A stretch of 54,448 nt of DNA from Deltaproteobacteria bacterium (GTDB lineage: Bacteria > Desulfobacterota > Desulfobacteria > Desulfobacterales > JAFDMD01). A program made the position numbers and the translations under genes. The stretch is from positions 1 through 54,448 of the forward strand of contig JAFDMD010000001.1 of the NCBI GenBank assembly GCA_019306185.1. Direction: 5' to 3'. The notes beneath the pieces were generated by a model. The model made no database searches and was not told the DNA's origin. It was given only the letters and a program-made list of their open reading frames with translations. Shown here piece by piece: positions 1-43,011 of the stretch. Each line of letters starts with the position of its first letter. The stretch's first letter is position 1.

Positions 1-103
1 TTTGACTATAAGTAGCGCTTCCCGTATGTTCTACGTCTGCGGCAAGCGCCGAAAACGCGATAAAGAAGAAACTTAAAAAGATATAAAAGATTATTTTTTT
101 CAT
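1..103 (-). CDS. 5' end of an exported protein gene running off the window (34 codons visible)
   Basis: ATG at 103-101 preceded by AAGGAT. Translation MKKIIFYIFLSFFFIAFSALAADVEHTGSATYSQ has a basic N-terminus, a hydrophobic core and an ALA-A cleavage-like site. Confidence 0.45.
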   Translation of the reverse strand, partial: MKKIIFYIFLSFFFIAFSALAADVEHTGSATYSQ

Positions 104-258
104 TTTGTTATCCTTATTTTATATTGAAATTGCAAATTGCCTCTAATACTTTTGCATAGCTTTTTTTTCGAGTTATGCCTTAATTTTAATAAGCCTGCGT
201 TTAAAACAGGACATCTTTTAAAAATAAAAAAATGTTATGCAAAGTTCTTTTCTATGTA

Positions 259-431
259 TAGATTGAGTTCTGAAATAGATTGAGTTCTGTAATAGATTGA
301 GTTCTGTAATAGATTGAGTTCTGTAATAGATTGAGTTCTGAAATAGATTGAGTTCTGTAATAGATTGAGTTCTGTAATAGATTGAGTTCTGTAATAGATT
401 GAGTTCTGTAATAGATTGAGTTCTGTAATAG
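259..431. repeat. Perfect head-to-tail tandem array, 17-bp unit TAGATTGAGTTCTG(T/A)AA, 10 full units plus a partial
   Basis: Read directly. Units start at 259, 276, 293 ... 412. Units 1 and 5 carry GAAA and the other eight carry GTAA. No spacers between units. Confidence 0.97.
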
Positions 432-527
432 TATTATGATGCTTTTATTTTATTTATATCATTAATGTCAAGCTTTTTTAGCAATTATTCCTTAAAATGT
501 AAGGGGGAAAAGATTAAAAATTTTTTA

Positions 528-1592
528 TTAAAATGCGTATATAAGATTTACCGGCAGCGGCGAATAGCGCAATGTTCCTGGTTTGGGCAGAATATATTGG
601 CAGTCAACTTTAAGCCAGCTTACGTCATGTTTTATTTCTCTTAATTTTCCGTCTTCCGGCGGAAGCGCATGCTCGGTAAAAGCATAAGAGGCGCAAAAAA
701 TATATATTTCGTCTTTTTCCTGTGTAACAACAGAGTAATTCTTTTTAAAACTTTTTAAGGTAATTGAGTTTGCTTGAGCTATCTTTTCGGCTTCTTTATC
801 TGTAAGTTTTACTAATACTGCTTTGGAAATTCTTTTTTCGGTAAGTTTTAAAAGGGCTCTTGATTCGGAGCTTGAAACATAAACGCCGCTTATGCAAGGC
901 AGCTTGCGCAGATACTGGGCGGCTATTATGGCGGCGGTTCTTCTGCCGCCGGCGGCAGGATGCATTCCGTAATATTCAAAAAATTTTCTTTGAACAATCT
1001 CCGCATATCTATCTCCTTTTTCATAAATGTCTTGCGAGACATAACGAAGAGATTTTGCAAGCTCTTCCGCGGCGTTTACTACAGGCCAATCTATTCTTAC
1101 ATGAAAATGGGAGATATGGTATCTGCTTTTCGATCTTATACTTTTATCGCGCTGAATAAGAGTCGCGTAATCTACGGATAAAAGCTGTGTTAAAAAATTA
1201 AAAATTTTCGGAGATTCCAAATATTTGTGAGTTCTATCAAAATTATCCAAAAGGCACAGTCCGCCGGAATTTATAAGATTGCTTTTGGTGGTTTTGTTAA
1301 TATCAAAAAATTTCAAATATTTTTTAAAAGAAGAGGGTATAAAATCTTCGGTAAAGATAACCAAAAACGGATTATGCTCTTTATATTCTATACTCGGTAT
1401 TCGGACTCTTGGCTTTAGCTCTTTATACTGGACAAAAGGAAATTCGGTTTTTTGTTTTAAAAAATTTTTATAAGAATCGACAAGTCCGTATTGTAAAAGG
1501 GTTTGTTCTAAATCGTCTGTCAATAATTCGTAATAAGACCTTCTTAATCTGTTTTTTAGGCTAAGCTCTTCCCGTTCTTTCCTGTAAGGCAT
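528..1592 (-). CDS. Hypothetical protein, 354 aa, no family recognised
   Basis: Long uninterrupted ORF in an AT-rich, stop-rich background. The overlapping opposite-strand ORFs are short and low-complexity. I could not name any motif. Confidence 0.7.
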   Translation of the reverse strand: MPYRKEREELSLKNRLRRSYYELLTDDLEQTLLQYGLVDSYKNFLKQKTEFPFVQYKELKPRVRIPSIEYKEHNPFLVIFTEDFIPSSFKKYLKFFDINKTTKSNLINSGGLCLLDNFDRTHKYLESPKIFNFLTQLLSVDYATLIQRDKSIRSKSRYHISHFHVRIDWPVVNAAEELAKSLRYVSQDIYEKGDRYAEIVQRKFFEYYGMHPAAGGRRTAAIIAAQYLRKLPCISGVYVSSSESRALLKLTEKRISKAVLVKLTDKEAEKIAQANSITLKSFKKNYSVVTQEKDEIYIFCASYAFTEHALPPEDGKLREIKHDVSWLKVDCQYILPKPGTLRYSPLPVNLIYAF

Positions 1593-1664
1593 TTTTAAAA
1601 CTCCGAATCTTTATTTGAGAATTGTAAATCTATCCTTTGATATTTATTCTATATTAATAAATTA

Positions 1665-1704
1665 TGTCAATAAAGTTTTTGGAATTTAAAAAACTTTATT
1701 GACA
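1665..1704. promoter_or_regulatory. Perfect 16-bp inverted repeat (TGTCAATAAAGTTTTT / AAAAACTTTATTGACA, 8-bp spacer) giving divergent TTGACA -35 boxes
   Basis: Palindrome read directly. The + strand TTGACA at 1699-1704 faces tRNA-Met. The - strand TTGACA (1670-1665) faces the 354-aa ORF, with ATAAAT 17 nt downstream. Confidence 0.45.
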
Positions 1705-1744
1705 AAGAGTTTTGTTAGAGTTAAAAAGTCAAATTAAATTTTAG

Positions 1745-1818
1745 GGGCCCATAGCTCAGTTTGGCAGAGCCACCGGCTCATAACCGGTAGGTCCCTGGTT
1801 CGATTCCAGGTGGGCCCA
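1745..1818 (+). tRNA. tRNA with CAT anticodon (Met, or Ile2 if lysidine-modified), no encoded CCA
   Basis: Acceptor GGGCCCA/TGGGCCC, anticodon stem ACCGG/CCGGT with loop CTCATAA, T-arm CCTGG-TTCGATT-CCAGG. Confidence 0.9.
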
Positions 1819-1824
1819 TCTTTA

Positions 1825-2748
1825 TTATTCGCAGCTATTTTCAAACAATTCTTTTTTAAGCCATTTATTAATAAAATGTTTTGTTATTGTTATATCCGTA
1901 TCGGTTTCTTTTGCCAAATTTTTAATTGATGATATAATCTCTAAACATTTTTTTTCTTTTCCGATTAAAGCATAAATTTTTCCGCTTCTTTTAAGATAAG
2001 AAACAGCTTCGCGCTTTTCGCCGGTAGCGCTTTTTACTTGAGCTATTTTTTCAAGATCTTCTGCTATTCCCTTATAAAAGCCGTTTTTTTTATCAACAGT
2101 TAGCGCCGTATCAAGATATTTTAAGGCAGAATCGTATTCCTTTTTTTTTATCATTATCTCGGCAAGTAAACAGTTTGCGGCGGCATATTCGGAAGCCTCT
2201 TTTTTTGCTTTTTGCAAGGCTATATTAAGCAGTTGTTCGGCTTTGTTATGTTTATTTTTTTTTATCATAACAGCGGCTTTTATATTAAGCAGAGGAGTAA
2301 ATATTATATTATTATCTTTTGATATTTTATCCGCTTGTTTAATAGTTTTTAAGGCTTCGGCTTGTTTGCCGTTTTCTATAAGCAAAGCGGCGGTATTGGA
2401 TAATGCTTGAAGCATTCCTTCGTAATTTTTTATTTCCGAATATATTTGATAGGCTTCTTTTAAAAAAGCTTCGGCTTTTTTAAGGTTTCCGATAGCTCTG
2501 TAGCTATTGCCTATGTTGTTTAGGCTCATAGCGACTCCATTGCTTGAATCCTCTCCGGAAAAAAATTCGTTTGCTTTTATGAAGCTATTAAGGCTTCTAT
2601 TATAGCAGCCTCTGTTATACCAAGCGGCGCCTTTTTTTATCTCTTTCATTCCAGCGGAAATAGAATTTTGCTCCTCTTTTTGTTGAAAGGGAAAGCAGGA
2701 GATAAAAAAAATAGAACAAAAGAGGGTTATTAAAGATTTTTTTAACAT
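1825..2748 (-). CDS. TPR-repeat lipoprotein
   Basis: N-terminal MLKKSLITLFCSIFFISC lipobox-like signal. Repeated A-x-x-x-Y/F and AL-x-x-A helical TPR-like pattern throughout the 307 aa. Confidence 0.7.
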   Translation of the reverse strand: MLKKSLITLFCSIFFISCFPFQQKEEQNSISAGMKEIKKGAAWYNRGCYNRSLNSFIKANEFFSGEDSSNGVAMSLNNIGNSYRAIGNLKKAEAFLKEAYQIYSEIKNYEGMLQALSNTAALLIENGKQAEALKTIKQADKISKDNNIIFTPLLNIKAAVMIKKNKHNKAEQLLNIALQKAKKEASEYAAANCLLAEIMIKKKEYDSALKYLDTALTVDKKNGFYKGIAEDLEKIAQVKSATGEKREAVSYLKRSGKIYALIGKEKKCLEIISSIKNLAKETDTDITITKHFINKWLKKELFENSCE

Positions 2749-2972
2749 AATATATCAGCCCTTTCATTGAGATATAACCTTATGAAACATTTATAACTAT
2801 CATGATTTCGGTTTAATTATCATATATTTTAAGTTATGTAAAAAATATTTAAGGTTTTTTTTTTATTGAAAAGAGGGGCTTAAAAAGAGATAATAAAAAG
2901 ATTTTTTGCTTTGCTCGACAGGACAGGAAGTAATTTTTTTTACAGCGTCATTTTACAGACTTTTTTTGCCAT

Positions 2973-2996
2973 GAGCGCAGCGAGGAGAAATCTCAT
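2973..2996. repeat. Solo copy of the GGGATTTCTC-type inverted-repeat end (GAGCGCAGCGAGGAGAAATCTC), followed by the ATAAACAGAGGAAA leader module
   Basis: Near-identical strings at 11821-11846 and 29762-29792, and in reverse at 17187-17220 and 32191-32216. Confidence 0.8.
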
Positions 2997-3029
2997 AATA
3001 CAAATATAAACAGAGGAAACATAAAAAAT

Positions 3030-4700
3030 ATGAAGAGTAAACTTTATGAAATTATAACCGATTCATTTAAGCGGGCTTATGAAAAGGGTTTTTTCCCGTC
3101 TGCGCGTTTGGTAGAAATTGAGATAGAAGAGCCGAGAAAGGCGGAACATGGAGATTTTTCTACAAATGCGGCTATGAAAAGCGCGTCGTTATATAAGATG
3201 CCGCCTAAAAAGATAGCCGAAATTCTTTTAGATAGTATAAAAGATACGGAAGGGATAATAGAAAAAGCCGAAATAGCCGGTTCCGGTTTTATCAATTTTT
3301 TTATTTCAAAAAAATTTTGGTATCCGATATTAAAACAGATACATAAAAAAGGCGCGCTTTATGGATCTGCAGATATTGGAAAAGGAAAAAAGGTTCTGAT
3401 AGAGTTTGTAAGCGCAAATCCTACGGGACCTTTGCATATAGGACACGGAAGAGGGGCTGCGGTAGGAGACGTTTTTGCAAAGATTTTTTCTTTTTGCGGT
3501 TATAAAGTAAGTAAAGAGTATTATTTAAATGATGCGGGCAGACAGATAAATACTTTAGGCAGATCTGTTTTTTTAAGATATAAAGAGATATTCGACAAAA
3601 AAATAGATTTTCCTCAAGACTGCTATAAGGGCGGATATATAAAAGATATTGCAAATAAAATAAAAGAGTTAAAAAAAGATCAACTTTTAAAAGCCGAAGA
3701 AAAGGATACTATAAAGTTTTGCGCCAAATTTGCGGCGGATGTAATTTTAAAAGGAATAAAACAGGATTTAAGCGAATTCGGGGTTGAATTTGATAATTGG
3801 TTTTCGGAGCGTTCTCTTTATAAATTCGGCAAAATAGATGCCGCTATAGAAGATTTTAAAGAAAAAAAGTATATATACGAAAAAGAGGGGGCATTATGGT
3901 TTAACAGCTCTTTGTTCGGAGATGAAAAAGACAGAGTTGTGGTAAGACAAAATAAAGAGGCTACATACTTTGCATCGGATATTGCGTATCATAAAGATAA
4001 ATTTGAGCGGGGTTTTGATAAGGTTATAGACGTATGGGGGGCGGATCACCACGGATACATTCCCAGGTTAAAAGCCGCGATACAGACTTTGGGTTATAAA
4101 AAAGAGAACTTTGAAGTTATTTTAATTCAGTTTGTAAATCTTTTAAGAGACGGCATCCCTATAGCAATGTCAACCAGAGCCGGAGAATTCGTTACCTTAA
4201 AAGAGGTTATAAAAGAGGTGGGAAAAGATGCCGCAAGATTTATCTTTTTAACAAGACATCATGAAAGCCCTTTAGATTTTGATCTGGAGCTTGCAAAAAA
4301 AAGAAGCTCTGATAACCCCTTATATTATGTTCAGTATGTTTGCGCCAGAATATCAAGCATTATTTCTAAAAAACAGGAGGATAAAAAAGGCAGTTTCGGA
4401 AGCGAATACGACATTTCGGCTCTTATGCTTTTAAAAGAGCCGGAAGAAATATCTATTATAAAAAATCTTTCTTTGTTTCAAGAAACCGTAATACTTGCGG
4501 CAGCATTTGCAGAACCTCATCGAATCGTATATTATTTAATCGAACTTGCATCTTTATTTCATAATTATTACAATAAACATAAGATATTAACCGATGACGT
4601 CTTACTTGAAAAAGCAAGAATATATCTTGCCCAAGCAATAAAAACGGTAATAAAGTCCGGTTTAAACCTTTTGGGCGTCGAAGCTTTGGAGCGGATGTAA
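3030..4700 (+). CDS. argS: Arginyl-tRNA synthetase
   Basis: 556 aa with class I HIGH motif (ANPTGPLHIGHGR), ArgRS-type N-terminal add-on domain and C-terminal anticodon-binding region ending ...GVEALERM. Confidence 0.93.
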   Translation: MKSKLYEIITDSFKRAYEKGFFPSARLVEIEIEEPRKAEHGDFSTNAAMKSASLYKMPPKKIAEILLDSIKDTEGIIEKAEIAGSGFINFFISKKFWYPILKQIHKKGALYGSADIGKGKKVLIEFVSANPTGPLHIGHGRGAAVGDVFAKIFSFCGYKVSKEYYLNDAGRQINTLGRSVFLRYKEIFDKKIDFPQDCYKGGYIKDIANKIKELKKDQLLKAEEKDTIKFCAKFAADVILKGIKQDLSEFGVEFDNWFSERSLYKFGKIDAAIEDFKEKKYIYEKEGALWFNSSLFGDEKDRVVVRQNKEATYFASDIAYHKDKFERGFDKVIDVWGADHHGYIPRLKAAIQTLGYKKENFEVILIQFVNLLRDGIPIAMSTRAGEFVTLKEVIKEVGKDAARFIFLTRHHESPLDFDLELAKKRSSDNPLYYVQYVCARISSIISKKQEDKKGSFGSEYDISALMLLKEPEEISIIKNLSLFQETVILAAAFAEPHRIVYYLIELASLFHNYYNKHKILTDDVLLEKARIYLAQAIKTVIKSGLNLLGVEALERM

Positions 4701-33198: not shown

Positions 33199-33516
33199 TT
33201 ATATTAACTTTATTCCTGTTTTTAAAATTTCTTTTGCAAACGGGTTATGCAGGTTAAAATCGGCGGGCGAAAAGGGCAGAACTTCTATTTCGCTGCTAAC
33301 GGATAAGGTTAGACTTCTTATTTTATCTTTATCCTCAATTCTATCGCCTGTGAATATGTCCGAAACCAAAGCAATATCAATATCGCTCCATTTATTATAA
33401 TTTCCTTTAGCATAGCTGCCGAATAGAACCGCTTTTTTTATGGGAATATTATTTTTGATTAGAAGGTTAAGATATTTTTCTATTCTGTTTTTTATTTTAA
33501 TAGGGAGTCGAACCAT
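33199..33516 (-). CDS. Minimal nucleotidyltransferase (MNT-type antitoxin)
   Basis: LFGSYAKGNYNKWSDIDIALV fits the GSxxxG...SDxD Pol-beta NTase motif. Overlaps the HEPN gene by 25 nt. Confidence 0.85.
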   Translation of the reverse strand: MVRLPIKIKNRIEKYLNLLIKNNIPIKKAVLFGSYAKGNYNKWSDIDIALVSDIFTGDRIEDKDKIRSLTLSVSSEIEVLPFSPADFNLHNPFAKEILKTGIKLI

Positions 33517-33884
33517 TTGTAAAACTCCTTAATTTTATCAAAATATTTATTAGTAAACTCTTTTGTGCATCGCTGATAAAATTCAAGTTTATAATCGGGA
33601 TAGCGTATCTGAATATTGAAATCATTTATTTTATCCAAAAGAAATTTCTGTTCATTATTCGGTTTTATCTTCGATAATTCTGTCAAACGCACGAGATTAT
33701 GAATTTTAGGCGGCGTATCATTATTATTCTTGTCAACAAATACTGCTTTTAATATTTTTTCTAATGCCAAATGCCCGACAAATAAACATCAATCATAGCG
33801 TTTTGATTTAAACATGCTTGCGGCGGATTCAAGATCATGGGAAGCGGTTTTTCGCCAATAAGCAATATGTTCTTCTTTTGTCAT
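33492..33884 (-). pseudogene. HEPN-domain protein interrupted by an in-frame TGA at codon 32
   Basis: ATG at 33884 gives MTKEEHIAYWRKTASHDLESAASMFKSKRYD-TGA-CLFVGHLALEKILKAVF..., all in one frame. The track ORF only begins at an internal TTG (33770). Confidence 0.75.
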
Positions 33885-34157: not shown

Positions 34158-34373
34158 TCAAGCGGTTTTGACATGCAGTTTTAAGCCGAGAGCGCCTATA
34201 ACTTTAAGTATTGTGTCGAAATTAGGATTTCTTTCGCCGGATAACGCTTTGTAAAGGTTTTCTATCGATAATCCGGATTAGCGCGCCGCTTGAGACATTC
34301 CTTTTGCGCGGGCTTTTATGTCCGACAATCCGTCTATCCATTTGGCAAATTTTTCTGTTTTTCCGATTTGCAT
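34158..34373 (-). pseudogene. Deletion remnant fusing a HigB/RelE-type killer N-terminus to a HigA/XRE-type antidote C-terminus, with an in-frame TAA
   Basis: MQIGKTEKFAKWIDGLSDIKARAK (killer-protein N-terminal pattern) joins directly to GMSQAAR-TAA-SGLSIENLYKALSGERNPNFDTILKVIGALGLKLHV (antidote HTH C-terminus). Confidence 0.65.
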
Positions 34374-34584
34374 TATAGATTTATTTGTATTCTTATGACT
34401 ACGGATTGTCAACGCCGTTTTATAATCTGTTGCGCTTGGGATTTTTTTTAGTTAAAAAAGGAAGAAAGATACAGAGGAAAAGAGGGAAAAAGGAAATCTT
34501 TTATACAAAAAGTTTTAAAATAAACATTTTAAACTTTGTATCTTTGTTACTCTGATACCGTTAAATAGAATAAAGGAGGCGTTA

Positions 34585-34755
34585 ATGATAGAATCCGCAT
34601 ATATGCTTAATACAGAGCTTGCAGTAAGGATAAAAAGACTGCAAAAACCGGAATATCGGATTGTTTTTTATCTTGAAGATGAGCTTATTACCGTAACCGT
34701 AATAAGAACAAGAGGAAATATTTATAAACGAGCAAAAAGAAAAAAGAAACTATAA
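34585..34755 (+). CDS. Short RelE/ParE-like C-terminal fragment (56 aa), possibly still expressed
   Basis: Strong AAAGGAGG RBS. YRIVFYLEDELITVTVIRTRGNIY resembles the last strands of RelE/ParE toxins, but the N-terminal half is missing. Its stop overlaps the moaB ATG (TAATG). Confidence 0.4.
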   Translation: MIESAYMLNTELAVRIKRLQKPEYRIVFYLEDELITVTVIRTRGNIYKRAKRKKKL

Positions 34756-35255
34756 TGACGCATAAAGATAATATATTAAAAAATTTAAATTTCGGGATAA
34801 TCAGCGTATCTTCTACAAGAAATATTAAAGAGGATAAAAGCGGAGACTGGATAAAAGAGGCGGCGGAAAAAAACGGGCATAAAGTAGTTTATAGAAGTAT
34901 GGCAAAAGACGATAAAAAAGATATTATAATAAAAGTTTCGGAAGCTTTGGATAAATTTAAAACGGACGCTTTAATTTTAACTGGCGGAACCGGACTTTCG
35001 GAAAAAGATGTAACGGTTGAGGCAATAAGCCCGTTATTCGATAAAACCTTAACGGCGTTTTCAGAGGTTTTTACTTTGGTAAGTTATAATAAAATAGGAG
35101 CGGCTGCCGCGTTATCCGGCGCTTGCGCAGGAATTATTAAAAAAAAAGTTGTTTTTTTACTTCCCGGAAGCCTTAACGCCTGCCAAGACGCTTGCAACGA
35201 GATTATTTTTTCTGAAATTGGACATATCGTAAAGCATTTGAGGCAGAATGATTAG
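34755..35255 (+). CDS. moaB: Molybdenum cofactor biosynthesis protein MoaB/Mog family
   Basis: MoCF_biosynth pattern: ILTGGTGLSEKDVTVEA, then ...LLPGSLNAC. Confidence 0.82.
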   Translation: MTHKDNILKNLNFGIISVSSTRNIKEDKSGDWIKEAAEKNGHKVVYRSMAKDDKKDIIIKVSEALDKFKTDALILTGGTGLSEKDVTVEAISPLFDKTLTAFSEVFTLVSYNKIGAAAALSGACAGIIKKKVVFLLPGSLNACQDACNEIIFSEIGHIVKHLRQND

Positions 35256-35306
35256 AAGAAGGAAGATAGGATATTTAACGATTTAAATAATTTTTTTAAC
35301 GGTTTT

Positions 35307-35328
35307 TATTTTGTAAAAAAAATAACCG
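35307..35328. repeat. Left copy of a 22-bp exact direct repeat TATTTTGTAAAAAAAATAACCG
   Basis: Identical to 37367-37388. The upstream TTAGAA..GATAG..ATTTAACG context is also shared. Confidence 0.9.
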
Positions 35329-35360: not shown

Positions 35361-36780
35361 ATGAAGATTAAAATAACAGATTTTGGTCCCATAAAAGAGT
35401 TTGAATTTGATTTAAACAAATCTTTTATAGGAATATTCGGCAAAAATAATACCGGCAAATCTTATGCAATATCTGCGACGTATCTTATTCTTAAACAGCT
35501 TCTTGATATTAATAGTATGGAAATTACTACTTCGATGGAACTTCTGATTAAAGAAATAATAAGTAAGCATAAAAAAAATCAAGAAGAATTTTTATCCTTA
35601 GAACAAAATGAAAATAATATAACAAAAAAATTTGAAAGCTTTTTTAAAAACATGTTTTTAAAAAACTTTACCGAAAAACTCACGGATTCCTTTTATTCCA
35701 CTTTCGGCGATTTGGAAAAGCTTAAAAATAAGTTTTCAAAAAATTATCCCAAAATAATTTTAAATTTTGATTCTTTAGAAGCTGCATTTATAATAGAAAA
35801 AGAAATTCTGATAGATAAAGTAATTCTAAAACGAGAGATAATTGTAAAAAATACCGCCTTGAATGAAAATTCGGGAACAAGCAAAGATAAAATCACATTA
35901 TGTCTTGCCATTAACAACAATAACTCTTTTCATATAGCTGGTGGCTTACATCTAATAATGGGTTGTTTATCGCTTTTTGAAGAGATAAGAGAAGCCGTCA
36001 CTAATGTTTATTATATGCCCGCTTCAAGAACAGGTTTATATCAGGCTTTAAGCAGTTATTCCGAAATATTTGCAGAATTATCCAAACAAAGAAGACACAT
36101 TGCCAAAAAATTTGAAATTCCCCGATTATCCGAACCTGTAAGCGATTATTTCATGCATCTTTCCGGGACATACGCAAATCGAAAACTTGGCATACGGCAA
36201 GCCGAATTATATAAATCACGTGAAGATATTGATCTGGAAATTATTAAAGGAAAAGTGTCTTTTGACGATAAAGATAAAAGAATATATTACAGCCCTGATA
36301 ATTCGGATATAACAATAGAAATTTCAACGGCTTCTTCAATGGTTTCGGAACTTGCCCCCTATAGTTTTATATTTAAAACATATAATACTTTATAAAATCG
36401 GATTATATAGTAATTATGACATTATGTTTAGCCCGTTAATATTTATAGAAGAGCCGGAGGCTCATCTTCATCCGAAAGTGCAGCTTCAATTAACGGAGAT
36501 TTTTTGCAGATTAACTAAAATAGGGGTTAAAATTGTAATAACTTCTCATAGCAATAATATTTTTACAAAGATGAATAATCTTATTCTTGCAAAGGAGCTT
36601 TTACCCAAAGATGTAGATGTTTCGGTTTTTGAGGAGACAAAAACAGGAAGTATTGTTAAAAAATCTAAAATAGACGAATTGGGGATAGACGATGATAATT
36701 TTTTGGAGACAGCCGAAGAATTATTTGAAGAAAAGATGAATTTTATAGACAAATTAAATGATGAACAGAATGATAGATAA
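35361..36780 (+). pseudogene. ABC/SMC-like AAA ATPase (AAA_15/AAA_21 type) with its frame broken at a C5 run; about 470 aa if repaired
   Basis: N-terminal strand plus Walker A (KITDFGPIKEFEFDL...IFGKNNTGKS), and Walker B/D-loop/H-loop in the second ORF (LIFIEEPEAHLHP, ITSHS). The ORFs 35361-36395 and 36352-36780 join as ...SSMVSELAP/IVLYLK... if one C is removed at 36355-36359. Confidence 0.72.
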
Positions 36781-37327
36781 AATTAATGAAGACCAAGAAC
36801 GGTTTTGGTTTAAAAGCCTATTATGCAAAGAAAATGGTATTTCCGCAGAAATAGACGACAAAATACAGGACGAAGACTATATAGTATTAAAAATAGATAA
36901 ATATTATGCCTCCTTAAAGATGGCAGAAACTCCGCCTTCGCCGGACTGCCTTATTATAGTGAAATGTAAAAAAAATAACCTTTACGATTTATATCTTGTG
37001 GAATTAAAGAATATAAAATCTCCCGCCGGTTTTAAGGTGAACAATATTAAGGCAAAATTTAAAACTGCGGTAAAAGATTTTATGTGTGAAAGATTTAAAG
37101 ATATTCTTTTAAATAAATCATATTCTATTAATAAGTTTAAAATATATTTTGTAACGGATGCTTGTAGAATAAAAAAATATCATCCTGATATTACGGAGGA
37201 AGATTATCTTAAAAGAATTGAAACTACAAAATTAAAAAGGGTTCAGAATTTAAAACCGTTAAAATTCAGAAATAAATCTGCGGCTATTGATTCGAGACTG
37301 CCTAATCCTATGATAAAATATTGTTAG
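36758..37327 (+). CDS. Small PD-(D/E)xK-like putative nuclease, 189 aa, translationally coupled to the ATPase
   Basis: SPDCLIIVKCKKNNLYDLYLVELKN gives PD...(18 aa)...ELK spacing, typical of restriction-endonuclease-fold cores. Overlaps the ATPase 3' end by 23 nt. Confidence 0.55.
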   Translation: MMNRMIDKINEDQERFWFKSLLCKENGISAEIDDKIQDEDYIVLKIDKYYASLKMAETPPSPDCLIIVKCKKNNLYDLYLVELKNIKSPAGFKVNNIKAKFKTAVKDFMCERFKDILLNKSYSINKFKIYFVTDACRIKKYHPDITEEDYLKRIETTKLKRVQNLKPLKFRNKSAAIDSRLPNPMIKYC

Positions 37328-37366
37328 AAAAAAGATAGAAAGGGATAAAGGAGATTTAACGCTTTC

Positions 37367-37388
37367 TATTTTGTAAAAAAAATAACCG
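37367..37388. repeat. Right copy of the 22-bp exact direct repeat
   Basis: See 35307-35328. Lies 26 nt upstream of the glnD ATG. Confidence 0.9.
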
Positions 37389-37414: not shown

Positions 37415-39994
37415 ATGGATATAAATTTATCTCCTATAAAAATATTGGAAGCAGAAAGAGAAAAGCTTATAAATTTGTTTTTAAAAAACAAAGCTTCCGA
37501 TTTTTTATATAAGCATTGCGGATTAATAGATAGATATTTTAAATCCGCATTTAAAATTGCAGGCGCTGATAAAAAAATTGAACCGGATATAAAAAAATAT
37601 GCGATTGCAGCTTTGGGAGGCTACGGAAGAAAAGAGCAGGCGATATGTTCGGATATTGATATAATAATTTTGTTTGAAGGCAGGCTTCCGAAAACTTCCG
37701 AAGATTTTATAAGCAGGATTATATATCCTTTATGGGATATGAAATTTGACGTGGGATATTCTTTTAAAAACGTAAAAGAGCCGATAAAGATAGAAAAAGA
37801 GCATTTTGAAACTTTTACGGCTTTGCTTGATTTACGATTCTTATGCGGAAACAAATTTTTATATTTAAAACTTGCCGATAATCTGAAAGAAAAAGTCAAA
37901 TCAGCCGAATCTCAAACAATAACGAGTTGGCTTATAGAAACAAATAAAGAGCGTCATAAAAAATTCGGAGATTCTTCATATTTGTTGGAGCCCAATTTAA
38001 AAGAGGGAAAAGGCGGACTTAGAGATTGTCATACTATTTTATGGATAGCCCGCATTAAATTCGGGCTTCGCGATTTCAAAGACCTTGAACGCACAGGCGT
38101 ATTCTCGTATGAAGAATTTAATAAATTAAAAGACTCCCTTGATTTTATATGGAATGTGAGAAACAGGCTTCATTATATTACAAAAAGAAAATGCGATTAC
38201 CTTTATAAAGAGTATCAGATACCGACCGCTTCCGATATGAATTTTGTCCGAATAAAAAACAGAAAGCCGGTAGAGGTTTTTTTAGGAACGCTTCATAATA
38301 GGATGGAATTTATAAAAGACCTTTTTTTGATTTTTATATATGAAAAATGCAGACCGAAAAAACCTGAGATTAAAAGAAAGAATTTAAAAAAACCTGAAAA
38401 AGGGCTTATAATAAAACGGGATTATATTCAATATTCTTCTTCGGAAGCCATATTGGAAAACCCAGAACTTTTAATTAAAATTTTTCAACACAGCGCCAAA
38501 CTTGATATTCCGTTAAGTGCAGAGGCAAAAAGACTTACCGAAGATTTTTTATATTTAATAGATCGCAAATATCAGAACTCGCAGGCTCTTTTAAAATCTT
38601 TTGAAAAGATACTTCTTATGCCTTTGTCTAATTTCAATACATTAAATTTAATGTTAAACAGAGGAGTTTTAGTTAAATATATTCCGGAATTTAAAGAGAT
38701 AACGGATCTTATACAATATAACGATTATCATATATATCCGGTTGACAAGCATTCGCTTTATACTCTTAAAACAATTAAACGCTTCGGAACATCCGAAGAT
38801 ATAACATCCGATACCCTTTGCGACGAGCTTTATAAAACTCTTATAAATAAAAAACCTCTTTTATGGGCGGCGCTTTTACACGATATAGGAAAAGGATACT
38901 CCGCAGGCGAGCATTCCGAAACAGGCGCAAAGATTGCCTGTGAAATCTTAAAAGAAAAAAAATTAAAAACAGAAGCTATAGATACCGTATCTTTTTTAAT
39001 AAAAAATCATCTTTTTTTAATAAAAACCGCCACAAGAAGAGACATTCAGGATGAATCAACCGCAATATTTTGCGCGCGTAAAATAAAAACAATTGAACGT
39101 CTTACAATGTTATATCTTTTAACGGTTGCGGATTCTATAGCCACAGGAACTAAAGCTTGGAACAAATGGAGGGAAGCTTTACTGCAGGATATTTTTTTTA
39201 AAACCTTCGACATAATAGAAAACGGAGAATTGGCAAGCGAGCAGACAATAGAGATAATCGAAGCGAAAAAAGAAAAGATTCTTCCTTTAAACCCCGCTAT
39301 TTTTGATTCAATGTCTCCGCGATATCTTTTATATACTGATATAAAAGATATAAAAGAGCATATAAAACTATACGAACAGTTAAAAGATAATAATTTTGTA
39401 TGGGATATAAAAAAGATAATAGAATCCGATACAAGAAAAATTACATTATGTAGTAAAGACAAACAGGGGCTTTTTTCTAAAATTGCCGGAGTTCTTGTAT
39501 TAAACGGAATAGAAGTATTAGACGCCCAAATCAATACTTGGAGAAACGGAATTGCTTTGGATATTTTTATAGTCAAACCTCCGAAAGATAAAATTTTTGA
39601 ACGGGAAAAATGGAAAAAAGCAGAGGCATCTCTTAATCTTGCTCTTTCCGACAAACTTAATATACAAGAAGCGCTGGAAAAAAGAAAAAAAGATTACAAT
39701 ATCAAAAAAAATAAAAACTACTGCGAAACCAAAGCCAACAAAGTTTCGATAAACAATAATATCTCGAAATTTTTTTCGGTTATAGAGGTTACAACTTATG
39801 ACGCGCAGGATCTTCTTTTTAGAATAACAGACGCAATATTTGGAAAAGAGATAGATATTAGAATTGCAAAAATAGCCACAAAAGCGGACAGAGTAATAGA
39901 TGTTTTTTATGTAAGAAATTTATACGGAGACAAAATATTTTCCAAAGAGAAAATTGAAGGATTAAAAACGGCTATTTATAATGCGTTGGATTAG
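37415..39994 (+). CDS. glnD: [Protein-PII] uridylyltransferase/uridylyl-removing enzyme
   Basis: NTase motif (GGYGRKEQAICSDIDI), HD domain (LLHDIGKG) and two C-terminal ACT-like domains. 859 aa. Confidence 0.88.
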   Translation: MDINLSPIKILEAEREKLINLFLKNKASDFLYKHCGLIDRYFKSAFKIAGADKKIEPDIKKYAIAALGGYGRKEQAICSDIDIIILFEGRLPKTSEDFISRIIYPLWDMKFDVGYSFKNVKEPIKIEKEHFETFTALLDLRFLCGNKFLYLKLADNLKEKVKSAESQTITSWLIETNKERHKKFGDSSYLLEPNLKEGKGGLRDCHTILWIARIKFGLRDFKDLERTGVFSYEEFNKLKDSLDFIWNVRNRLHYITKRKCDYLYKEYQIPTASDMNFVRIKNRKPVEVFLGTLHNRMEFIKDLFLIFIYEKCRPKKPEIKRKNLKKPEKGLIIKRDYIQYSSSEAILENPELLIKIFQHSAKLDIPLSAEAKRLTEDFLYLIDRKYQNSQALLKSFEKILLMPLSNFNTLNLMLNRGVLVKYIPEFKEITDLIQYNDYHIYPVDKHSLYTLKTIKRFGTSEDITSDTLCDELYKTLINKKPLLWAALLHDIGKGYSAGEHSETGAKIACEILKEKKLKTEAIDTVSFLIKNHLFLIKTATRRDIQDESTAIFCARKIKTIERLTMLYLLTVADSIATGTKAWNKWREALLQDIFFKTFDIIENGELASEQTIEIIEAKKEKILPLNPAIFDSMSPRYLLYTDIKDIKEHIKLYEQLKDNNFVWDIKKIIESDTRKITLCSKDKQGLFSKIAGVLVLNGIEVLDAQINTWRNGIALDIFIVKPPKDKIFEREKWKKAEASLNLALSDKLNIQEALEKRKKDYNIKKNKNYCETKANKVSINNNISKFFSVIEVTTYDAQDLLFRITDAIFGKEIDIRIAKIATKADRVIDVFYVRNLYGDKIFSKEKIEGLKTAIYNALD

Positions 39995-40011: not shown

Positions 40012-43011
40012 ATGCCGCATATATTGGAAATAGCTTTAAAGCCTGATATTTTTGACGCCGAAGGCGAAAATATTAAAAAGAAAGCAAAAGAGTATTTTAA
40101 TATTGATATAGAAGATGTCCGAGTAATAAATATTATAGCGATTAATGCGGATTTTTCGGAAAAAGAGCTTGATATTATAGCCGAAGAATTTACAAATCCT
40201 GTTACTCAAATTTTTTCTTATAATTTGCCGCCTATTAATTTTGATTGGACAATTTGGGCAGGATTTAAAGTCGGAGTAAAAGATAACGGCGCAGACTGCG
40301 CAAAAGAGGCTATCGAAGATTTTTTAAAAATTAAAAAATTCGGTAAAAACAATTCCATTCACACTTCAAAAAGATACTGCATAACAGACGCAAATCTTAC
40401 TTATCAAGATATTAAAAAAATTGCAGACGAACTTTTGGCAAACGATATAATATCCGAATCTAAAATATATAATAATAAGCAATGGAATTTTAAAAAAAAT
40501 ATAGCCGATATTATTCCGCAAATAAAAAAAGGTTATAAACCGAAACTTGAAATAATATCTGTAAATTCCGCAAAAACCTTAAACGAAATACTTAAAAAAA
40601 GAGGAATACCTCTTGTAAAAAAAGATGTTTCGGCAATTTATTCTTATTTTAACGATAATAAAATATTAAAAAAAAGAGCCGAATATAATTTAACTAAACC
40701 TACCGATTTGGAGCTGGAATGTATTGCCCAAGCAAGAAGCGATCATTGTTGCCATAACACTTTTAGAGGTTTGTATCGTTACTTTGACAAAGAAACAGGC
40801 AAAAGATTAACAATTAATAATCTTTTTGCGCAATATATAAAAAATCCGACATTAAAACTCAAAAAAGATAAAAAAGAGATTGTTTCCGTATTATGGGATA
40901 ACGCCGGAATAGTCAGCTTTAACAATCGCTATAATTATGCGGTTACGGGCGAAACTCATAATTCTCCTTCCAATTTGGAGGCTTACGGCGGAGCGATTAC
41001 GGGCATACTCGGAGTTTTTCGAGATATAATGGGAGCGGGAAAAGGCGCAAAACCTATAATGGGAAGCTTCGGGTTTTGCGTAGGAGATATTAATTATAAA
41101 GGAAATTTAAAACCGAAGCTTCATCCGAAACGCCTTCTATACGGAGTAATAGAAGGGGTAAAAGACGGAGGCAATAAAAGCGGAGTGCCCACCTCTTTCG
41201 GCAGCATTATTTTTAACGATAAGTATATCGGCAAAAGCCTTGTTTTTGTAACCGCAATAGGAATAATGCCTGCAAAAATAAAAAAAGAGCCTTCCGAAAT
41301 AAAAAAAACCGAAGCCGGCCATCTTATAATAATGTCCGGCGGATTGGTTGGCAAAGACGGCATACACGGCGCCACGGCATCTTCAGAAATATTATCTTCG
41401 GATACTCCGGCAAGCCATGTTCAAATAGGAGATCCTTATACTCAAAAAAAGATGCAGGATTTTCTTATAGAGGCAAGAGATAAAGGATTAATCGAATATA
41501 TTACAGATAACGGCGCCGGAGGATTATCCGGTTCCGTTTGCGAATCCGCATATTGTTCCGGCGGAGCAAAAGTTGATCTTTCAAAAGTTCCTTTAAAGTA
41601 CGATTCGCTTGATTTTTGGGAAATATGGGTTTCGGAATCTCAAGAAAGAATGACAATTGCAATATCTCCGAAAAATCTTAAAACATTTATGCGGCTTTCA
41701 AAAAAATATGGCGTTAAAAGCAGCATAATAGGCGAATATACAAACTACGGCGCTTTACATATAACTTATAAAGATAAAACCCTTGCTTATATAGAACTTG
41801 ATTTTTTAAGAAACGGCTTTTTGCAGTCCGAATTCGATGCGGTTTGGACGCCCCCTAAAAAGCGAGGGTTATTCGAACCTGTTATCCAACAGCCGAGAGA
41901 TTATAATAAATTATTAAAAAATATTTTAAAAAGCCGAAATATATCTTCAAAAGAATCTGTTATAAGACAATATGATCATGAAGTATTAGGACAAAGCATT
42001 ATAAAGCCTCTTGTAGGAAAAAATAGAGACGTTTTTTCAGATGCCGTAGTAATAAAGCCGGATTTTAATTCTTACAAGGGGTTATCCTTTGCAAACGCAA
42101 TACTTCCTTTTTATTCCGAAATAGATACCTATTATATGACGCAGGCGGTTGTTGACGAGGCGGTAAGAAGAGTTATATCCGTAGGCGGAAATATCAATTA
42201 CATAAGCGGCATAGATAATTTTTGCTGGCCAGATATACGATATGACAAAAAAAATAATCCTGACGGAAAATTAAAAGCGGCAAAATTAGTCCGCTCCTGC
42301 ATTGCATTAAAAAGAATATGCTTATCCTATAAAATTCCGCTTATCTCCGGCAAAGACAGCATGTATGCAGACGGGCAGATACCGGATCAATACGGAAAAA
42401 TACATAAAATATCCGCTCCCGAAACATTATGCTTTTCTGCAGTAAGCATAGTGGAAGACATAAGAAAATGCGTTACTATGGACTTTAAAAACCCAGGAGA
42501 TATTATATATCTGCTCGGAAATACAAAAAACCAACTCGGCGGCTCCGCATATTACGAAATACTCGGTTATATAGGCTTAAATGTTCCGAGAATAAATAAT
42601 TTCAAAAAATTTTTATCATTATATAAGGCTCTTTTTTCCGCTATAAAAAAATCTCTTATATCCTCTGCTCGCGGCATATACAGAGGCGGGCTTGCGGTTC
42701 ATTCGGCGCTTTGTTGCGCGGCGGGAGAACTCGGAGCGGAAATCAATTTAAACAAAATTGCGTTATTAAATTCCGAAAAAAAAATAAGAGATGACATACT
42801 ATTTTTTTCCGAATCTCCGGGCAGATTCATAATAACCGTAAATTGTAAAAATAAAAAAAAGATAGAAAAAATTTTCGAAGGGCTTCCTTGTTATTGCATA
42901 GGCAGGGTAACCGAAGAAAGAAATTTCATCATAAAAGGGTTAAAAAATAAAAATATCGTTTCGCTTGCTATCAAAGATATAAAAGATTTTTATAAATCTG
43001 GCGTCTTGTAA
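40012..43011 (+). CDS. purL: Phosphoribosylformylglycinamidine synthase, PurS-PurL fusion
   Basis: The N-terminal ~80 aa are PurS-like. These are followed by PurL AIR-synthase-like repeats (ETHNSPS, DNGAGGLS, SESQERM). Confidence 0.88.
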   Translation: MPHILEIALKPDIFDAEGENIKKKAKEYFNIDIEDVRVINIIAINADFSEKELDIIAEEFTNPVTQIFSYNLPPINFDWTIWAGFKVGVKDNGADCAKEAIEDFLKIKKFGKNNSIHTSKRYCITDANLTYQDIKKIADELLANDIISESKIYNNKQWNFKKNIADIIPQIKKGYKPKLEIISVNSAKTLNEILKKRGIPLVKKDVSAIYSYFNDNKILKKRAEYNLTKPTDLELECIAQARSDHCCHNTFRGLYRYFDKETGKRLTINNLFAQYIKNPTLKLKKDKKEIVSVLWDNAGIVSFNNRYNYAVTGETHNSPSNLEAYGGAITGILGVFRDIMGAGKGAKPIMGSFGFCVGDINYKGNLKPKLHPKRLLYGVIEGVKDGGNKSGVPTSFGSIIFNDKYIGKSLVFVTAIGIMPAKIKKEPSEIKKTEAGHLIIMSGGLVGKDGIHGATASSEILSSDTPASHVQIGDPYTQKKMQDFLIEARDKGLIEYITDNGAGGLSGSVCESAYCSGGAKVDLSKVPLKYDSLDFWEIWVSESQERMTIAISPKNLKTFMRLSKKYGVKSSIIGEYTNYGALHITYKDKTLAYIELDFLRNGFLQSEFDAVWTPPKKRGLFEPVIQQPRDYNKLLKNILKSRNISSKESVIRQYDHEVLGQSIIKPLVGKNRDVFSDAVVIKPDFNSYKGLSFANAILPFYSEIDTYYMTQAVVDEAVRRVISVGGNINYISGIDNFCWPDIRYDKKNNPDGKLKAAKLVRSCIALKRICLSYKIPLISGKDSMYADGQIPDQYGKIHKISAPETLCFSAVSIVEDIRKCVTMDFKNPGDIIYLLGNTKNQLGGSAYYEILGYIGLNVPRINNFKKFLSLYKALFSAIKKSLISSARGIYRGGLAVHSALCCAAGELGAEINLNKIALLNSEKKIRDDILFFSESPGRFIITVNCKNKKKIEKIFEGLPCYCIGRVTEERNFIIKGLKNKNIVSLAIKDIKDFYKSGVL

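Follow-up and report, generated by a model that had tools for sequence, protein, structure and literature searches.

What is the two-gene cassette that lies between a moaB-like gene and glnD in a metagenome-assembled 'Deltaproteobacteria bacterium', and what has become of it there? The DNA analyzed here, hereafter the window, is a stretch of 54,448 nucleotides (nt) from contig JAFDMD010000001.1 of this genome (locus-tag prefix JRJ49), and the cassette occupies positions 35361-37327, where two co-directional genes encode an ABC ATPase and a small protein with a PD-(D/E)xK-type motif. A sequence-only reading of the window had proposed an uncharacterized defence-type system. What holds of that proposal is that this is a co-inherited ATPase/nuclease-type pair of an unnamed family; what does not is its novelty of design, as the architecture is already known from the systems PD-T4-4 and WonAB, and the copy present here is probably inactive. 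We consider it reasonably likely that what lies here is a copy, now decayed, of a two-gene anti-phage system of the abortive-infection type that has the same design as PD-T4-4 and WonAB. Because the pair has this architecture yet fails the sequence-membership tests for PD-T4-4, WonAB, and the PADLOC candidate PDC-M47, it is, as judged by sequence comparison, a further unnamed branch of the same architecture.

The two named systems provide the frame for what follows. PD-T4-4 of E. coli ECOR58, listed as 'ATPase, nuclease' (Vassallo et al. 2022), is a validated anti-phage system whose open reading frames (ORFs) span 1973 bp (PMC9519451 Tables S1/S2), and elsewhere it is described as pairing an ABC ATPase with a PD-(D/E)xK nuclease (PMC10952713; bioRxiv 10.1101/2025.07.10.664194; bioRxiv 10.1101/2024.01.29.577857). 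WonAB, from the V. cholerae WASA-1 prophage (Adams et al. 2025), consists of an OLD-type ABC ATPase and a small PD-(D/E)xK protein and aborts ICP1 infection (PMC12137116). Defence is lost with the WonB substitution K71A, which also abolishes toxicity, and with mutations in the Walker motifs or the H-loop of WonA; WonB is toxic only with active WonA, and translation stops while genomic DNA remains intact (PMC12137116). The authors of that study see a relationship both with PD-T4-4 and with an 'OLD-ABC ATPase + novel REase' operon class (PMC12137116). With these two systems on record, and with the PADLOC candidates PDC-M47 and PDC-M29 beside them, the earlier statement that no named pair with this small PD-(D/E)xK partner was known does not hold.

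The first gene of the cassette encodes the ATPase in two pieces, both on the plus strand. The N-terminal frame of 344 amino acids (aa) at 35361-36395 carries Walker A, a Q-loop region (PASRTG), and the signature-like ASSMVSE before it reaches a premature stop after a frameshift, and the C-terminal part, read in the +1 frame at 36360-36780 (ORF 36352-36780), carries Walker B, the D-loop region, the H-loop, and a C-terminal helical extension. Dropping one C from the CCCCC run at 36355-36359 (plus strand, CTTGCCCCCTATAG) restores a single 472-aa ATPase that is collinear with its homologues: about 120 intact ones, 440-495 aa long, align with 99-100% of its length. The sequence-only reading had spoken of a 'repaired ATPase', which implies that the frameshift had been seen, and the lesion can now be placed as one extra C in this run. 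In the repaired protein, Walker A (GKNNTGKS, 35439-35462) occupies residues 27-34, the signature-like motif residues 324-330, Walker B (LIFIEE, 36436-36453, continuing into the D-loop region PEAHLHP to 36474; LIFIEEPEAHLHP) residues 360-366, and the H-loop (TSHS, 36541-36552) residues 394-397. The Walker A, Walker B, and H-loop residues are invariant across 55 ATPase homologues.

Database searches with the repaired protein provided clear family assignments, with Pfam matches to AAA_15 (57.9 bits against a cut-off of 32.1, residues 2-400) and AAA_21 (41.7 bits against a cut-off of 27). The ABC/SMC-like ATPase of the earlier reading is present with all of its motifs. The closest Protein Data Bank (PDB) matches of an AlphaFold2 (AF2) model of the intact orthologue P0183 (predicted local distance difference test score, pLDDT, 87.6) were PtuA from Septu and retron systems, the retron Eco8 effector, and Rad50 (E 1e-11 to 1e-8). 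The top PADLOC matches were PDC-M47A (5.6e-26) and PD-T4-4_A (1.6e-25), then NsnB, AriA, and GajA, and all of these best matches are ABC ATPases from nuclease-coupled defence systems. The 472-aa protein has no Pfam TOPRIM match that would indicate a fused C-terminal nuclease, and it stops about 75 residues past the H-loop; the GajA and Old profiles match it only around residues 350-410. The OLD family proper (class 1/2 OLD, GajA) is ruled out for this ATPase by the lack of a C-terminal TOPRIM domain, and the protein is an OLD/PtuA-like ABC ATPase without a fused nuclease.

Through the frameshift, Walker B and the H-loop no longer share a reading frame with Walker A, the Q-loop, and the signature motif, and no convincing restart signal was found ahead of the second part. 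Orthologues are in frame at this site: a contig from a related metagenome-assembled genome (MAG), L021, reads CTTGCCCCTATAG, and another contig, L022, reads CTTGCGCCTATAG, so that a run of five C here stands against four C or GCGCC in the orthologues. The run of five C recurs in a separate ENA assembly (L020; contig labelled SAMN06288063), whose cassette sequence is near-identical to that of the window, and the same 344-aa product (P0182) is called there. The comparison thus points to a frameshift that is specific to the window's lineage. With the ATPase split between its signature motif and Walker B, the system is most likely inactive in this genome, a status predicted from the reading frames. 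The WonAB nuclease is unstable and non-toxic when its ATPase is inactive (PMC12137116), and the intact small nuclease gene by itself would likewise be harmless in this genome. A second, independent case of decay was seen in an uncultured Desulfobacterales MAG (L019, 2327-2913), where it is the small nuclease gene that is split, into two overlapping fragments.

The second gene, at 36758-37327 on the plus strand, encodes the small partner. The 189-aa ORF that the earlier reading described is present, and from its first ATG (36758) it overlaps the ATPase stop by 23 nt; however, homologues and the NCBI annotation begin the protein at Met5 (36770), which is the likelier start and gives 185 aa with an 11-nt overlap. 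The small protein has no match in Pfam, PADLOC (E <= 1), NCBIfam, or PDB sequences, neither an HNH nor a TOPRIM domain was matched in Pfam or PADLOC, a profile of its family retrieved nothing from PDB sequences, and tblastn against plasmids gave no match. An exhaustive HMMER search of 1.84 billion representatives placed it in a family of 241 clusters at 50% identity (E <= 0.001), whose members are nearly all stand-alone proteins of 165-205 aa.

Residue conservation, counted in an alignment of 138 family members, identifies the putative active site. The alignment has no conserved stretch of 7-10 columns; single positions stand out instead, with E82 present in all 138 relatives, D47, D63, and K100 each in 137, and position 84 occupied by K in 106 and by R in 31. 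The PD...ELK core picked out in the earlier reading is therefore real, its residues D47, D63, E82, K84, and K100 being near-invariant (codons at 36896-36898 for D47, 36944-36946 for D63, and 37001-37009 for E82-L-K84). In a confident AF2 model of the small protein (pLDDT 91.6; predicted template modelling score, pTM, 0.89), D47 lies in a helix (46-52), D63 starts a strand (64-69), and E82-x-K84 ends the next (76-83), and this placement in a helix and two consecutive strands is what a PD-(D/E)xK-type site should show. Foldseek searches with the model, which had been proposed as a check together with the conservation of the D/E/K residues, retrieved almost exclusively PD-(D/E)xK proteins as top matches, namely FokI, Hachiman HamA, MspJI, N.BspD6I, bunyavirus cap-snatching endonucleases, herpesvirus UL24, and VRR-NUC, but none was significant: the best E value was 0.04 in the PDB (FokI; TM 0.24-0.33) and 0.005 in BFVD, with nothing below 0.001. 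Single family members gave further weak matches, three relatives to Shedu SduA (2.6e-4) and others to TnsA_N and UL24. The small protein is very probably a divergent representative of the restriction-endonuclease fold whose active site is intact; in this assignment from sequence and model, the conserved motif and its geometry carry more weight than the structural matches, none of which was significant.

The two genes belong together. In all 22 related loci examined, of which 16 were reached through the small protein and six through the ATPase, the small gene lies directly downstream of an ATPase homologue on the same strand, overlapping or abutting it. A profile search with a 15-sequence alignment gave 12 genome loci, with Anaerovibrio not among them. 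The hosts include Ca. Magnetomorum, Desulfobacterales, Desulfolutivibrio, relatives of Thiomargarita and Beggiatoa, Vibrio parahaemolyticus and V. diabolicus, Aeromonas rivipollensis, Acidobacteriota, and Bacteroidota. The pair is spread patchily, and in varied contexts, over Desulfobacterota, Thiotrichales/Beggiatoa-type Gammaproteobacteria, Vibrio, Aeromonas, Acidobacteriota, and Bacteroidota. This is a genuine co-inherited two-gene cassette, and the gene-neighbourhood check that the earlier reading had suggested comes out clearly in favour of co-occurrence.

Its surroundings vary. In two Vibrio assemblies (L004 and L005, 1-10425) the pair follows an identical filamentous-prophage block (replication protein, coat, Zot, pIV secretin) and a DUF2726 gene; block and pair occupy two chromosomal sites, with different chromosomal genes following in the two assemblies, which suggests that in Vibrio the prophage block carries the pair along as its cargo. 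The Desulfolutivibrio pair (L006) adjoins RelB/YafQ and HicB, and the Aeromonas pair adjoins UvrD and a 645-aa AAA_15 protein, a Gabija-like pair. The L003 neighbourhood (1-4577) is a small defence island: directly upstream of the pair it encodes a DpnII/MboI-type restriction enzyme, a DUF3024 protein, and a second AAA_15/AAA_21 ATPase, which has a DUF4276 protein as its partner. The expectation that homologues cluster in defence islands is thus supported by prophage, toxin-antitoxin (TA), restriction, and Gabija-like neighbours in some taxa only, about half of the neighbourhoods consisting of ordinary metabolic genes.

Is the pair then a member of one of the known systems? The comparison with PD-T4-4 used as its reference a pair from E. 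coli plasmid CP057079.1, identified by PADLOC (862 and 357 bits), rather than the ECOR58 proteins. The likeness is considerable in layout: both have an ABC ATPase gene followed by one for a PD-(D/E)xK protein of about 190-210 aa, spanning 1973 bp in PD-T4-4 and 1967 bp here, and PD-T4-4_A is, jointly with PDC-M47A, the nearest PADLOC match of our ATPase, residues 1-437 of which align to positions 1-406 of the 460-position PD-T4-4_A profile (1.6e-25). The scores, however, are 88.2 bits (PDLC04033) and 54.1 bits (PDLC04032) where the true member reaches 301 and 862 bits, and BLASTP against the true PD-T4-4_A gave 29% identity over only 142 C-terminal residues. The true PD-T4-4_B retrieved for comparison has 209 aa and a D...DxK core (SCD...FDQK), and true partners score 310-357 bits on PD-T4-4_B; our small protein has no detectable similarity to it, with no match (E <= 1) to any of the four PD-T4-4_B profiles and, among the matches listed for the 138 relatives, none below an E value of about 0.02. 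Membership in PD-T4-4 was rejected, as both profiles fail at the family level (A at 88 against 301-862 bits, B without a match). Bona fide PD-T4-4 pairs were located on the mobilizable IncX1 plasmid CP057079.1 of E. coli (L023, 2077-4159) and on a 7.9-kb ColRNAI plasmid of K. pneumoniae (L024); in the Klebsiella record the PD-T4-4 ATPase is annotated as two overlapping ORFs.

PDC-M47 and PDC-M29 are PADLOC candidates, untested cassettes that were discovered inside Hma systems (Payne et al. 2024, bioRxiv 10.1101/2024.01.29.577857). PDC-M47 shares with our pair an ABC ATPase family followed by a small second family (FAM_00005>>FAM_02059, 66 occurrences), and our ATPase scores 89.5 bits on PDC-M47A in two stretches, against 227 bits for the true PD-T4-4 ATPase on the same model. 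The small protein of the window itself has no PDC-M47B match; two of the 138 relatives do match PDC-M47B (best 4.5e-5), and one matches PDC-M29B. With no match of the small protein and only those two among its relatives, membership in PDC-M47 was likewise rejected. The PADLOC check proposed in the earlier reading therefore gave a divided answer: the ATPase matches nuclease-coupled defence ATPases at about 88-90 bits, but the small protein matches nothing and the pair would not be called.

WonAB offers the other comparison, for which WonA and WonB sequences were taken from Supplementary Table 4 of the WonAB paper (PMC12137116). Both systems are two-gene operons in which an OLD-type ABC ATPase without a fused nuclease precedes a stand-alone small PD-(D/E)xK protein, both ATPases carry PA(S/G)RS, signature, IEEPEAHLxP, and T(S/T)HS motifs, and both small-protein families have several conserved cysteines. 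Alignment of our small-protein family to 11 WonB sequences with hhalign was borderline (69% probability, P 4.4e-5, 60 columns), and its register sets D47, D63, and E82-K84 opposite VDG, CD, and ELK of WonB, with K84 corresponding to WonB K71. In contrast, WonA has a shorter distance from Walker A to Walker B (E300 and H333, compared with E363/364 and H396 here), and WonB is about 140-170 aa rather than about 185 aa, with another cysteine pattern and without the C-terminal extension. Phmmer matched our ATPase to six WonA sequences at 20-35 bits, with alignments that reach only from the signature motif to the H-loop, and WonAB itself maps best to PADLOC PDC-M29 (WonA to PDC-M29A), not to PDC-M47 or PD-T4-4. 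A WonA-type ATPase was ruled out on these low scores and the different best PADLOC model. Core peptides of the small protein (PDCLI, VELKNI, and others) gave no B-type match in those parts of the WonAB paper's hit tables that could be consulted, and a search of IMG/VR with the wonB qPCR primer gave no match.

The sequence-only reading had likened the pair to Septu and PARIS, and the likeness holds for the ATPase fold class, with PtuA as the best structural match and AriA and GajA as significant hidden Markov model matches, and for the logic of an ABC-ATPase sensor that controls a nuclease. It does not extend to the partner, in which Pfam and PADLOC matched neither HNH nor TOPRIM: the effector of Septu is an HNH protein (PtuB), that of PARIS is TOPRIM/DUF4435 (AriB), and Gabija has a TOPRIM domain fused to GajA plus the UvrD-like GajB, and none of these is found here.

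By analogy with the characterized relatives, we infer a defence function for intact copies along with complex formation, an activation logic, and a substrate, as follows. Gene A (about 470 aa) would act as an ATP-dependent sensor or regulator, and gene B (about 185 aa) as a translationally coupled nuclease effector. A would dimerize through composite ATP sites, B would dock on the C-terminal extensions of A, and an infection cue would be needed before B is licensed to cut. The likely target would be translation-related RNA rather than bulk DNA, and its cutting would arrest the infected cell. This preference for RNA of the translation machinery follows from the analogy with WonAB and from the fact that EcPD-T4-4 was inactive on every DNA substrate tried in vitro.

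A different reading of the small protein would take its cysteines as the starting point. C23, C64, C70, and C189 are all present in 90 of the 138 relatives; C64 adjoins the catalytic D63, and C189 is C-terminal. The small partner could represent a separate unnamed effector family in which the cysteines may serve as ligands of a metal or Fe-S cluster, or may gate the active site through redox-sensitive disulfides, so that the pair would be regulated, or would cut, differently from WonAB and PD-T4-4. We regard this as unlikely; if true, such a cysteine-gated pair would merit its own name as a defence system.

How did the cassette come to lie where it does? Its neighbours are as the earlier reading had named them, a moaB-like gene with a MoCF_biosynth domain (34755-35255) upstream and glnD with GlnD_UR_UTase, HD, and ACT domains (37415-39994) downstream. 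The GC content of the cassette, 29.2%, is the lowest of any 2-kb stretch in the window (34.4 ± 2.9%). The earlier reading had also described the cassette as bracketed by a duplicated sequence, and this repeat is real: two 34-nt direct copies on the plus strand, at 35295-35328 (TTTAACGGTTTTTATTTTGTAAAAAAAATAACCG), ending 33 nt 5' of the ATPase start codon, and at 37355-37388, beginning 28 nt past the small-gene stop and ending 27 nt before the glnD start. The copies share 32 of their 34 positions, the window has no third copy, and none of 100 shuffles gave a match; a 16-nt core (TGTAAAAAAAATAACC) occurs exactly once more, inside the small gene (36965-36980). We found no significant hairpin in the repeat (folding z-scores -0.76 and +0.54), and promoter and terminator signals were no more numerous there than in shuffles, and a role as terminator or promoter was rejected on these values.

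Nor does the repeat date the arrival of the cassette. In L021, moaB (79% identical) is followed by an intact ATPase (65% identical) and then by the small gene, and in L022 the small gene (82% identical) is followed by glnD (81% identical). Since these relatives keep the order moaB-A-B and B-glnD, respectively, the cassette predates the divergence of the related genomes and is not a recent arrival. The upstream repeat copy is missing from the moaB-ATPase spacer of L021, which is only about 20 nt long, although the cassette is present there. A recent insertion with target-site duplication was rejected for this reason, and the repeat is a local feature rather than the footprint of the original insertion. 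The picture of mobile cargo inserted at this place is therefore overstated for this genome, as related genomes have the same moaB/glnD placement. The L021 contig is JAOZKE010000265.1 of GCA_029935515.1 (422-2726), and the intact proteins P0183 and P0003 (65% and 68% identity) carry the JRJ49 locus-tag prefix; the JRJ49 bin, with this second pair, may hold two related populations or a duplicated locus.

The 'toxin-antitoxin graveyard' of the earlier reading corresponds to an HEPN-MNT (nucleotidyltransferase) TA-type pair near moaB, at 33199-33770 on the minus strand, whose 92-aa HEPN ORF covers profile positions 34-115 of 117 and is thus N-terminally truncated. Short unassignable ORFs lie between this pair and moaB (34278-34412 and 34585-34755). 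Beyond glnD, a 999-aa ORF at 40012-43011 encodes a PurS-PurL fusion, with N-terminal PurS, an FGAR-AT linker, and AIRS/AIRS_C.

Several observations weigh against a decayed anti-phage system of the PD-T4-4/WonAB design. Anti-phage activity of this exact family is a prediction from its relatives. PADLOC would not call the pair, given an ATPase at about 88-90 bits and a small protein without a match at E <= 1, and hhalign of the small-protein family against two true PD-T4-4_B sequences was not significant (1% probability), while the link to WonB is borderline at 69%. Structural support for the PD-(D/E)xK fold is weak (best Foldseek E 0.04, or 0.005 in BFVD). About half of the neighbourhoods examined consist of ordinary metabolic genes and are not defence islands, and in this lineage the pair has kept a stable place between moaB and glnD. 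As for the decay, the ENA contig may derive from the same sample as the window, and a shared sequencing or assembly error in the C run is accordingly possible.

This last point leads to the possibility that the system is intact, with the extra C being a sequencing or assembly error, a minority variant, or a shift that is bypassed by +1 slippage on CCC-U. There is only one lesion, it falls in a homopolymer, the gene is otherwise full-length and well conserved, and the B gene is undamaged with every catalytic residue kept; the CCC_UAU context could in principle let the P-site tRNA-Pro slip by +1. Nevertheless, the run of five C recurs in the separate ENA assembly, orthologues require no frameshift, and the A site has no stop or rare codon that would stimulate programmed +1 shifting. 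Illumina consensus errors at 5-nt runs are uncommon, which also counts against a mere error, and we think it doubtful that this copy is intact. Quite improbable, in our view, is a role outside immunity altogether, whereby the pair would be a selfish addiction or TA-like module, or a housekeeping pair for DNA or RNA processing, kept vertically at moaB-glnD. Such a role would suit the synteny retained in relatives at about 80% flanking identity, the defence genes missing from many neighbourhoods, the naming of AAA_21 after its AbiEii/type IV TA context, and the TA modules close by both here and in L006. It would not suit the patchy distribution across phyla, with only 241 clusters (50% identity) in 1.84 billion representatives, the varied contexts that include the prophage-linked block at two Vibrio sites, or the repeated decay, of the ATPase here and of the B gene in L019. 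The closest characterized relatives are, moreover, all defence systems, and the experiments with WonAB count against pairs of this architecture working by a simple TA mechanism (PMC12137116).

One could also file the pair under an existing name, as simply a divergent PD-T4-4 (or PDC-M47). Gene order and sizes agree (1967 bp against 1973 bp), the ATPase aligns end to end with the PD-T4-4_A profile at 1.6e-25, PD-T4-4_B itself is represented in PADLOC by four profiles (190-206 positions) with only weak relationships among them, and true PD-T4-4 proteins also match PDC-M47A/B. Against this, 88 bits is far under the 301-862 bits of a true member, BLASTP found 29% identity in 142 C-terminal residues only, neither the small protein nor its 138 relatives match PD-T4-4_B below an E value of about 0.02, and the hhalign comparison with PD-T4-4_B stands at 1% probability. 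We consider such a filing very unlikely to be right and retain the reading of a decayed anti-phage pair from a further branch of the architecture.

Pairs of an ABC ATPase and a nuclease are among the commonest designs of bacterial immunity, and this family adds a third, sequence-distinct branch beside WonAB and PD-T4-4. It opens no new mechanism class; the design is already validated in two relatives, and the copy in the window is probably dead. Current defence finders, however, appear to miss the family, and with intact representatives in culturable Vibrio, Aeromonas, Agrobacterium, and Desulfolutivibrio, it is useful for better annotation models and for comparative work on this architecture.

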